64,000 nt of DNA from an uncultured Gammaproteobacteria bacterium (GTDB taxonomy: Bacteria > Myxococcota_A > UBA796 > JAJRTE01): contig CAYQMG010000072.1 in the NCBI GenBank assembly GCA_964418585.1, positions 19,121 through 83,120 on the forward strand, read 5' to 3'. Shown here in pieces: positions 46,322-47,711 of this stretch. The stretch's first letter is position 1. Each line of letters begins with the position of its first letter. The notes beneath the pieces were generated by a model that did no database searches, had not been told where the DNA came from, and was given only the letters and a program-made list of their open reading frames with translations. The translations under genes were made by a program, and so were the position numbers.

Positions 46322-46634
46322 CGTGACCCTCGAGACGGCCTCCGAACCCTCTTCCCTCGCACCCAAGCGGGCGCAGCCTCACCTCGTCGTGTTCACTATG
46401 TACCGCGATCAAGGCGCAAGCGCAATGAATAAGCGCGGCTCACGAACCCTTCTCCGCGCATTTCACTTCCGCCCCGGGCTGGATGTGTGCTAAACAGCGC
46501 TTCGTGGTCCATGGTGCGGAGCGCCCTCCATTGCTCACCGCCCCCTGGAATCCGGGCACAGGATCGGTGAGCAGACGGTTCCGGGCGTCCCACTCGAGAT
46601 GAGGTGGAACCTTCAGACGAGCAGGAGAGGACTC

Positions 46635-47711
46635 ATGACACGGCAACAACGGTGCAACCTCACCGCCATGGTTCAGGCGGCCGGTTGAGCGTCCAAGCTG
46701 GGCCCAACGGTGTTGGGCGATACACTGGCTCGGTTGCCGCTCGTGGCCGACAGCCGGTTGCTCGTGGGGTTCGGAACCTCGGACGATGCGGCCGTCTATC
46801 GACTGGGCGACGACCTGGCCCTGGTGCAGACGGTGGACTTCTTCACCCCCATCGTCGACGATCCTTACTGGTTCGGCCGAATCGCGGCCTCGAACGCGCT
46901 CTCCGACGTGTACGCCATGGGCGGACACCCGCTCACGGCGATGAACATCGTCTGTTTCCCGGAAAAAACCCTGGGGATGGACGTGCTGGACCGAATCCTG
47001 AGAGGAGGATTGGATGCCATCAACGAGGCGGGCGCCACCCTGGTCGGAGGACACACGGTCAGCGACCCCGAACCCAAGTACGGCCTCGCAGTGACCGGCA
47101 CCATCCATCCCGACGAGGTGATCAGCAATGGGGGAGCACGACCGGGGGACCTCCTGGTCCTGACCAAGCCCATCGGAACCGGCATCCTGTGCACAGCCCA
47201 CAAGCGCGGGGAACTACCCGACGAGAAGCTCGAGCCGGTGGTCAAGGTCATGGCGGCTCTGAACCGCGCGGCCGCTGGGGCCATGCGCACGCTCGGTGTC
47301 CGGGGGGCCACAGACGTGACCGGCTTCGGACTCCTGGGCCACGCCCTGGAACTGGCCCGCGCAAGCAACGTCACGCTCGAGATCCATGCCAACCGAGTCC
47401 CGTTACTCCAGGGCACCCTCGAATACATCGAGCGAGGCACCGTGCCCGGAGGGACCAAGAAGAATCGAAAGCACGCGCTCCCTCATGCGACGGTCTCGCC
47501 CGCTGTTCCCGACCCCCTCCTCCTGGCTCTGTGCGACGCGCAGACCTCGGGGGGGCTCCTCATCGCCGTCCCGGGCGACCGGGCACACGACATCGCATCC
47601 GCATTCGAAAAAGCGGGCCACCTGGAGCACGCGGTCATCGGGCAAGTGACCGAGCGAGGGGAAACGCCCCTGGTCGTCGTCCCGGGAGGCAAGGATGAAG
47701 CGATGTTCTGA
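46635..47711 (+). CDS. selD: Selenide, water dikinase SelD, a selenoprotein with an in-frame UGA (Sec) at 46686-46688
   Basis: The listed ORF (46710..47711) begins at ...LGDTLARL, equivalent to E. coli residue ~25. Translating the same frame upstream gives MTRQQRCNLTAMVQAAG-[TGA]-ASKLGPTVLGDTL..., which aligns with E. coli [15 protein letters not shown] with the TGA at the catalytic Cys17 position. AGGAGAGG RBS before the ATG at 46635. The rest matches SelD strongly (GRIAASNALSDVYAMGG, ATDVTGFGLLGH). Confidence 0.8.
46700..46720 (+). ncRNA. SECIS-like hairpin (CCCAAC-GGU-GUUGGG) about 14 nt downstream of the selD UGA
   Basis: Perfect 6-bp stem with a GGU apical loop inside the selD mRNA, at the spacing expected for a bacterial SECIS. 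Confidence 0.4.

Follow-up and report, generated by a model that had tools for sequence, protein, structure and literature searches.

The selD gene and its reading frame

In the window (the whole 64-kb stretch of DNA analysed here) we found a full-length selD gene with an in-frame TGA near its 5' end and an RNA hairpin shortly downstream of this codon. The features of the locus are as follows.

46623-46630, plus strand: Shine-Dalgarno-like run AGGAGAGG, read from the sequence, with its GGAG core 7 nt 5' of the ATG
46635-47711, plus strand: full-length selD coding sequence, 358 codons including the putative selenocysteine (Sec) codon; stop TGA at 47709-47711
46635-46685, plus strand: N-terminal 17 codons left out by the ORF callers, MTRQQRCNLTAMVQAAG, aligning with E. 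coli SelD residues 6-16
46686-46688, plus strand: in-frame UGA, the predicted Sec codon, equivalent to E. coli SelD Cys17
46695-46697, plus strand: AAG codon of the catalytic-loop Lys, equivalent to E. coli SelD Lys20
46702-46718, plus strand: candidate bSECIS hairpin GCCCAAC-GGU-GUUGGGC, with the 5' arm at 46702-46708, the loop at 46709-46711 and the 3' arm at 46712-46718
46710-46712, plus strand: GTG used as start in the ORF and gene calls, an internal Val codon (Val26) that lies inside the hairpin

Read from the start codon ATG (46635-46637), the frame gives MTRQQRCNLTAMVQAAG*ASKLGPTVLGD..., where the asterisk is the TGA at 46686-46688, and it meets no further stop until 47709-47711. The coordinates and frame of this ATG and TGA are those given in a first-pass annotation of the same DNA, and the ribosome-binding site that it had placed before the ATG is present as the Shine-Dalgarno-like run at 46623-46630. 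A promoter and terminator scan around selD returned nothing informative.

The ORF list gives selD as 46710-47711, and in the phmmer alignment GTG 46710 is the equivalent of E. coli SelD residue 25, in agreement with the residue of about 25 estimated before. The public gene call (P0001) also starts at this GTG, is 333 aa long and has MLGDTL as its first residues; the GTG has no Shine-Dalgarno-like sequence. All proteins in the set composed of the window protein and its ten closest database proteins (P0001-P0011) are about 300-333 aa long and start 3' of the Sec codon, and the database relatives mostly begin with MLGQAL or MLGDTL. The 333-aa public SelD is a gene-caller artefact that starts at an internal Val and is missing the catalytic loop, and the truncation of Sec-type SelD in metagenome-derived protein sets is a systematic artefact of gene calling.

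When translated with Cys at the TGA, the 358-aa product scored 398.3 bits against the curated HMM TIGR00476 (selD; cut-off 125), with residues 9-316 covering profile positions 2-310 of 311, and 354.6 against NF002098 (cut-off 299). The match to TIGR00476 begins at position 2, so that the codons added upstream fill in the beginning of the family profile, which is otherwise missing. The remainder of the product is a standard AIRS/AIRS_C SelD, and by family membership the enzyme is a putative selenophosphate synthetase (selenide, water dikinase).

Using phmmer against PDB chains, we matched the product to E. coli SelD (3u0o_A) with an E-value of 6.6e-74 over residues 7-342. Query residues 7-27 (CNLTAMVQAAGCASKLGPTVL; CNLTAMVQAAG[TGA]ASKLGPTVL) align with E. 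coli SelD residues 6-26, and from this alignment the TGA codon corresponds exactly to Cys17, as had been claimed in the first-pass annotation, and the next Lys to Lys20. Provided that the UGA is decoded, the product therefore has the Gly-rich loop of SelD, in which position 17 is Cys or Sec and position 20 is Lys. In E. coli SelD, Cys17 binds selenide and the C17S variant is inactive (PMC3956282). The two proteins belong to the same family and their residues 17 and 20 correspond, but the E. coli enzyme is of the Cys type (G-C-G-C-K) and needs no recoding, whereas the window SelD uses UGA. The loop of Aquifex aeolicus SelD (SSGCAAKVGPGDL; PDB 2yye and 2zod, and the N-terminally truncated 2zau) likewise aligns with AAG(U)ASKLGPTVL, at an E-value of 4.6e-67. 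This protein is a distant relative of the window SelD. We take the native A. aeolicus enzyme to have Sec at the loop position, the crystallised protein presumably being a Sec-to-Cys variant.

The nearest SelD relatives are encoded in the Myxococcota metagenome-assembled genomes (MAGs) L003 (79% identity) and L004 (62%), both of the TGA type. Compared with L003, the window is 38% identical ahead of ATG 46635 and 88% identical in the stretch from ATG to TGA; the bases just 5' of the ATG (GACTC) are common to both. The 17 codons between ATG and TGA differ by five synonymous changes and one non-synonymous change and are under purifying selection, and the 42 codons spanning the TGA hold 15 synonymous and four non-synonymous differences. 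The jump in identity and the mostly synonymous changes place the beginning of the coding region at 46635. They exclude the in-frame ATG at 46599, the start coordinate of the first-pass annotation, around which the region is not conserved in L003. Two marks of bacterial selenoprotein genes are thus seen at this locus: the UGA stands where homologues have Cys or UGA, and coding sequence is conserved on both sides of it between the window and L003.

A hairpin downstream of the UGA and its conservation

The selD hairpin has a stem of 7 bp, with 13 nt between the UGA and the first stem base and 20 nt between the UGA and the loop (46689-46708). The bare hairpin has a minimum free energy (MFE) of -9.8 kcal/mol; with two flanking bases on each side this becomes -11.4 kcal/mol (z = -2.8), and 2 of 200 shuffles are equally stable. 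The first-pass annotation had described a 6-bp hairpin with a GGU loop about 14 nt past the UGA. The hairpin is real and its GGU loop and the gap, here 13 nt, hold up, but the stem is 7 bp and not 6 bp long.

The bSECIS consensus, in the passages of PMC13188914 that set it out, has a loop of 3-9 nt capping an upper stem of 4-16 bp, a G at one or both of the first two loop positions, usually with G or U after it, a distance of 16-37 nt from UGA to loop, and an MFE of -7.5 kcal/mol or lower. The selD hairpin, with its 3-nt GGU loop, 7-bp stem, 20-nt spacing and -9.8 to -11.4 kcal/mol, agrees with all four of these points, which bears out the SECIS-like identity first proposed for it. It is the same kind of simple stem-loop, located in the coding region shortly after the UGA, as is described for the bSECISearch consensus in these passages, of which the E. 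coli fdhF SECIS is the prototype (PMC13188914). The window differs from this consensus in having a loop of the minimal size of 3 nt and no bulged base in the 7-bp stem, and the hairpin is a predicted SelB site.

Hairpins of at least 7 bp that follow the bSECIS rules lie downstream of 4.5% of all TGA trinucleotides in this window, which has a GC content of 62%. Taken alone, the hairpin is weak evidence because of this chance rate in GC-rich DNA, and it is the comparative data that make it more than a chance occurrence. With Rfam at gathering thresholds, no SECIS family and no match for the hairpin was obtained over the window, and a permissive Rfam search of positions 46600-46800 gave only chance-level matches to che1 and CRISPR-repeat families (E-values of at least 1.5).

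For the comparison, one genome per GTDB species was scanned, the window's own genome being absent from the set. This gave 80 SelD loci, and the N-terminal motif was parsed in 78 of them. The codon equivalent to Cys17 is TGA in 58 of the 78 loci, mostly within G-U-A-S-K, and TGC or TGT in 20, as G-C-G-C-K or G-C-A-C-K. We aligned the 58 TGA-type sequences without gaps over 48 nt from the TGA on (alignment A1). The first two bases of the Lys codon (AA, columns 10-11) are invariant and the third is A or G, and no fewer than 90% of the loci have G as the first loop base (column 25). RNAalifold returned no consensus pairs for the 58-sequence alignment, probably because the loop has only 3 nt and the hairpin of some lineages lies 3 nt further 5', and the named hairpin was therefore tested by pair counting and with a covariance model.

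The seven base pairs of the window are formed in 78% of the cells of the 58-sequence alignment, where shifting the 3' partner by one to three columns lowers pairing to 22-46%. Among the 32 sequences with the same register as the window, 90% of the cells are paired, and over both counts the shifted partners pair in 22-49%. Compensatory changes on both sides were detected at four of the seven stem pairs, and none of 500 shuffles reached the observed covariation, these being pair counts on SelD sequences that are kin and protein-coding. In L004, one A-U pair of the window's stem is replaced by G-C. The hairpin goes together with the TGA, and it is missing at the 20 Cys-type loci: the mean local MFE is -10.0 kcal/mol for Sec-type loci versus -4.5 kcal/mol for Cys-type loci, and the best stem has on average 6.5 bp versus 3.7 bp.

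We also built a covariance model on 32 loci from other lineages, leaving out the window and L003. It gave one match in the 64-kb window, at 46686-46725 (40.7 bits, E-value of 3e-11; next match at 0.9), with a score that partly reflects the conserved coding sequence and not structure. Set beside Sec-containing SelD of other bacteria, a comparison that the first-pass annotation had suggested, the window gene thus shares its TGA with 58 of the 78 related loci and has its hairpin in register.

At the two codons that straddle the loop (A1 columns 21-29, window positions 46706-46714), the encoded residue pairs co-vary as T-V, A-E, G-D, K-F and A-V, and the SelD residues here appear to be dictated by the RNA stem. 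Six loci of the Bacillota/Symbiobacteriaceae type with the motif G-U-G-C-K (L020, L021, L038, L039, L052, and L055) carry a different hairpin, AGGUCC-GGG-GGACCU, located 3 nt nearer to the UGA (columns 12-32). The bSECIS of SelD genes would seem to occur in at least two registers.

Probable decoding of the UGA as Sec

Among bacterial selenoproteins, SelD and FdhA have the widest distribution, and all surveyed bacteria with selenoproteins had one or both of them (PMC1794560). Sec-containing SelD is known in Deltaproteobacteria/Desulfobacterota, Clostridia, and Pasteurellales (PMC1794560, PMC4561486), including the myxobacterium Anaeromyxobacter dehalogenans (PMC1794560), and a survey of SPS genes that used RNAz recovered the bSECIS elements of such genes (PMC4561486). 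These bacterial genes have the same UGA at the Cys17 codon within the Gly-rich loop and a stem-loop directly after it in the coding sequence; the G-U-A-S-K motif of the window is that of most of the 58 TGA-type loci. We found no structural difference between them and the window gene, which matches the class in every feature tested; the window copy stands alone, not beside selA, selB or ybbB. As Sec-SelD with a bSECIS is already documented, the window gene adds a new and so far unannotated case, from an uncultured lineage.

The locus is very probably a functional selD of a Myxococcota-like bacterium in which Sec replaces Cys17 and the UGA is recoded via a bSECIS. The reading frame, the homology, the position of the UGA, the conservation of UGA and hairpin and the purifying selection are established here, and from them we infer SelB binding and Sec insertion; since the hairpin fits the bSECIS consensus on all four points, the canonical explanation by SelB and Sec is the best one. 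Translation would begin at ATG 46635. As the ribosome reaches the UGA, the stem-loop at 46702-46718 of the mRNA would be bound by SelB carrying GTP and Sec-tRNA(Sec), and Sec would be inserted at 46686-46688, the catalytic position of SelD. Translation would then run on to the real stop at 47709. The earlier description of selD as a selenoprotein gene truncated by ORF calling is upheld by the full-length HMM match, the TGA in 58 of 78 loci, and the covarying hairpin.

We detected no selA, selB or tRNA-Sec gene in the roughly 70 kb formed by the 64-kb window with 1.4 kb to its left and 4.3 kb to its right, and no tRNA gene of any kind in the window itself. In four of the related loci (L039, L061, L066, and L076), a tRNA-Sec gene lies within 10 kb of a TGA-type selD, which supports the Sec-SelD class and not the window's genome in particular. 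Given the Sec-type selD, selA, selB and selC can reasonably be expected in the source genome.

The UGA might instead be a genuine stop, so that the locus is a decaying remnant or SelD truly starts at GTG 46710 and does without the catalytic loop. The choice of this GTG by the gene callers and the lack of Sec machinery in the approximately 70 kb examined would fit such a reading, but we consider it very unlikely. The 17 codons before the TGA would have no reason to be 88% conserved in L003, with nearly all changes synonymous, next to unrelated DNA ahead of the ATG. Moreover, both TGA and hairpin persist in three Myxococcota lineages at 62-79% protein identity, which argues for active decoding of the UGA, and in 55 other loci. 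The protein made from GTG 46710 would miss the loop with Cys17 and Lys20, and loss of Cys17 alone inactivates the E. coli enzyme (C17S; PMC3956282). The GTG itself lies inside the hairpin and has no Shine-Dalgarno-like sequence to serve it.

Read-through of the UGA without Sec, in which a near-cognate tRNA inserts Cys, Trp or Arg with the help of the hairpin, strikes us as highly improbable. It supposes an organism without selA, selB and selC in which the conserved UGA and hairpin are decoded independently of SelB, and it too would agree with the Sec machinery not being found in the approximately 70 kb examined. We know of no bacterial precedent for Sec-independent read-through of UGA in selD. 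A precedent exists in insects, namely the SECIS-less SPS1-UGA genes of Hymenoptera (PMC4561486). The loop sequence and spacing of the window's hairpin nevertheless fit the bSECIS model of the SelB type, as the consensus passages of PMC13188914 describe it, and the hairpin is common to lineages in which tRNA-Sec adjoins selD. A selD gene in a genome without Sec decoding would furthermore be expected to lose its function or to switch its codon to Cys, as in 20 of the 78 loci. If read-through independent of SelB did operate here, the role of SelD would be limited to a selenium-cofactor or selenouridine trait, with a possible connection to the SsnA/YgeW cluster that lies 20-30 kb upstream of selD, and the gene would be a bacterial counterpart of insect SPS1-UGA.

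Regarding sequence reliability and the genetic code, an identical selD protein and locus are present in independent ENA and Logan assemblies, and an assembly error is therefore unlikely; the organism is represented in ENA ERZ27262694 and SRA SRR8542060. Of the window's 39 family-supported genes, 25, among them selD itself, have TGA as their ordinary stop, and as the main stop codon it indicates that the genetic code is standard. In a scan of the window's TGA codons, only that of selD has coding potential on both sides within one gene; the other three matches are antisense frames of ligA or the same-frame junction of adjacent genes, and no further selenoprotein genes were found in the window. 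That TGC or TGT was misread as TGA in sequencing or assembly, or that UGA is reassigned genome-wide (code 4 or 25), is thus scarcely conceivable even for a metagenome-assembled contig, given the agreement of the independent assemblies, the TGA shared by the relatives, the use of TGA as stop in 25 of 39 genes and the single TGA with coding sequence on both sides.

Under the favoured reading of selD as a Sec-type gene recoded via a bSECIS, the main value of the result is in annotation, and the known biology of SelD and of bacterial Sec recoding is unchanged. Pipelines that rely on truncated SelD entries will under-call the selenium-use traits of Myxococcota-like MAGs. Read correctly, selD indicates that the organism probably uses selenocysteine and predicts selA, selB and selC, and probably further selenoprotein genes, elsewhere in the genome.

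Genomic surroundings of selD

Some 1.4 kb of contig sequence to the left of the window and about 4.3 kb to its right carry genes for MoaC, Ham1, an Omp85-family protein, and TamB, and none of the sel genes. Upstream of selD, the window contains a cluster of six genes.

16437-19034: DPD/YgfK-like Fe-S flavoprotein, below the YgfK cut-off
18946-20379: SsnA, by NCBIfam
20402-21709, minus strand: ornithine aminotransferase
21749-22792, minus strand: ornithine carbamoyltransferase
22726-24513: CysK-like PLP enzyme
24553-25746: YgeW, a knotted carbamoyltransferase, by NCBIfam

SsnA scored 525.8 against TIGR03314 (cut-off 455.5) and 560.5 against NF005540 (cut-off 444), and YgeW scored 620.8 against TIGR03316 (cut-off 500) and 645.3 against NF005538 (cut-off 453). 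The 865-aa flavoprotein next to ssnA, the supposed ygfK, is composed of GltD-like, PreA/DHODH-like, and ferredoxin domains and reached 151.7 bits against TIGR03315, below the cut-off of 835.3. Of the selenium-linked ygfK-ssnA pair named in the first-pass annotation, ssnA is thus retained but ygfK is not. That annotation had also counted these genes in favour of Sec use, a point that has to be given up: ssnA- and ygeW-type genes are associated with the SelD-dependent selenium-cofactor trait and not with Sec decoding, according to the passage of PMC4561486 that cites Haft and Self 2008. The SsnA/YgeW cluster is compatible with selenium use and is no evidence for Sec-SelD. In its gene content, the cluster at 16437-25746 resembles the ygeW-ssnA neighbourhood linked to selenium-dependent purine catabolism; xdh, yqeB and yqeC were not seen within it.

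Upstream of selD on the opposite strand is a gene for an FlhF-like SRP54-type GTPase, located at 44650-45663 (minus strand) in the window and at 6492-7697 (minus strand) in L004. An ORF in L003 (257-1306, minus strand) matches it in size and position and is probably the same gene. Also upstream of the TGA-type selD in L004 are two adjacent ORFs (3020-4438, plus strand, 473 aa, and 4504-6372, plus strand, 623 aa) that were considered as selA and selB by their size and rejected, as neither has an NCBIfam match at an E-value of 1e-10 or lower. Antisense ORFs overlap both, and they may not be real genes.

Several ORFs in the window have coding-like GC3 and no Pfam match. These are located at 25715-26788 (plus strand), 30831-31736 (minus), 45623-46366 (minus), 47795-48718 (minus), 51011-52231 (minus), 52284-53813 (plus), and 60129-62384 (minus). 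Those at 25715-26788, 45623-46366, and 47795-48718 have no NCBIfam match either. Two of the Pfam-less ORFs directly flank selD.
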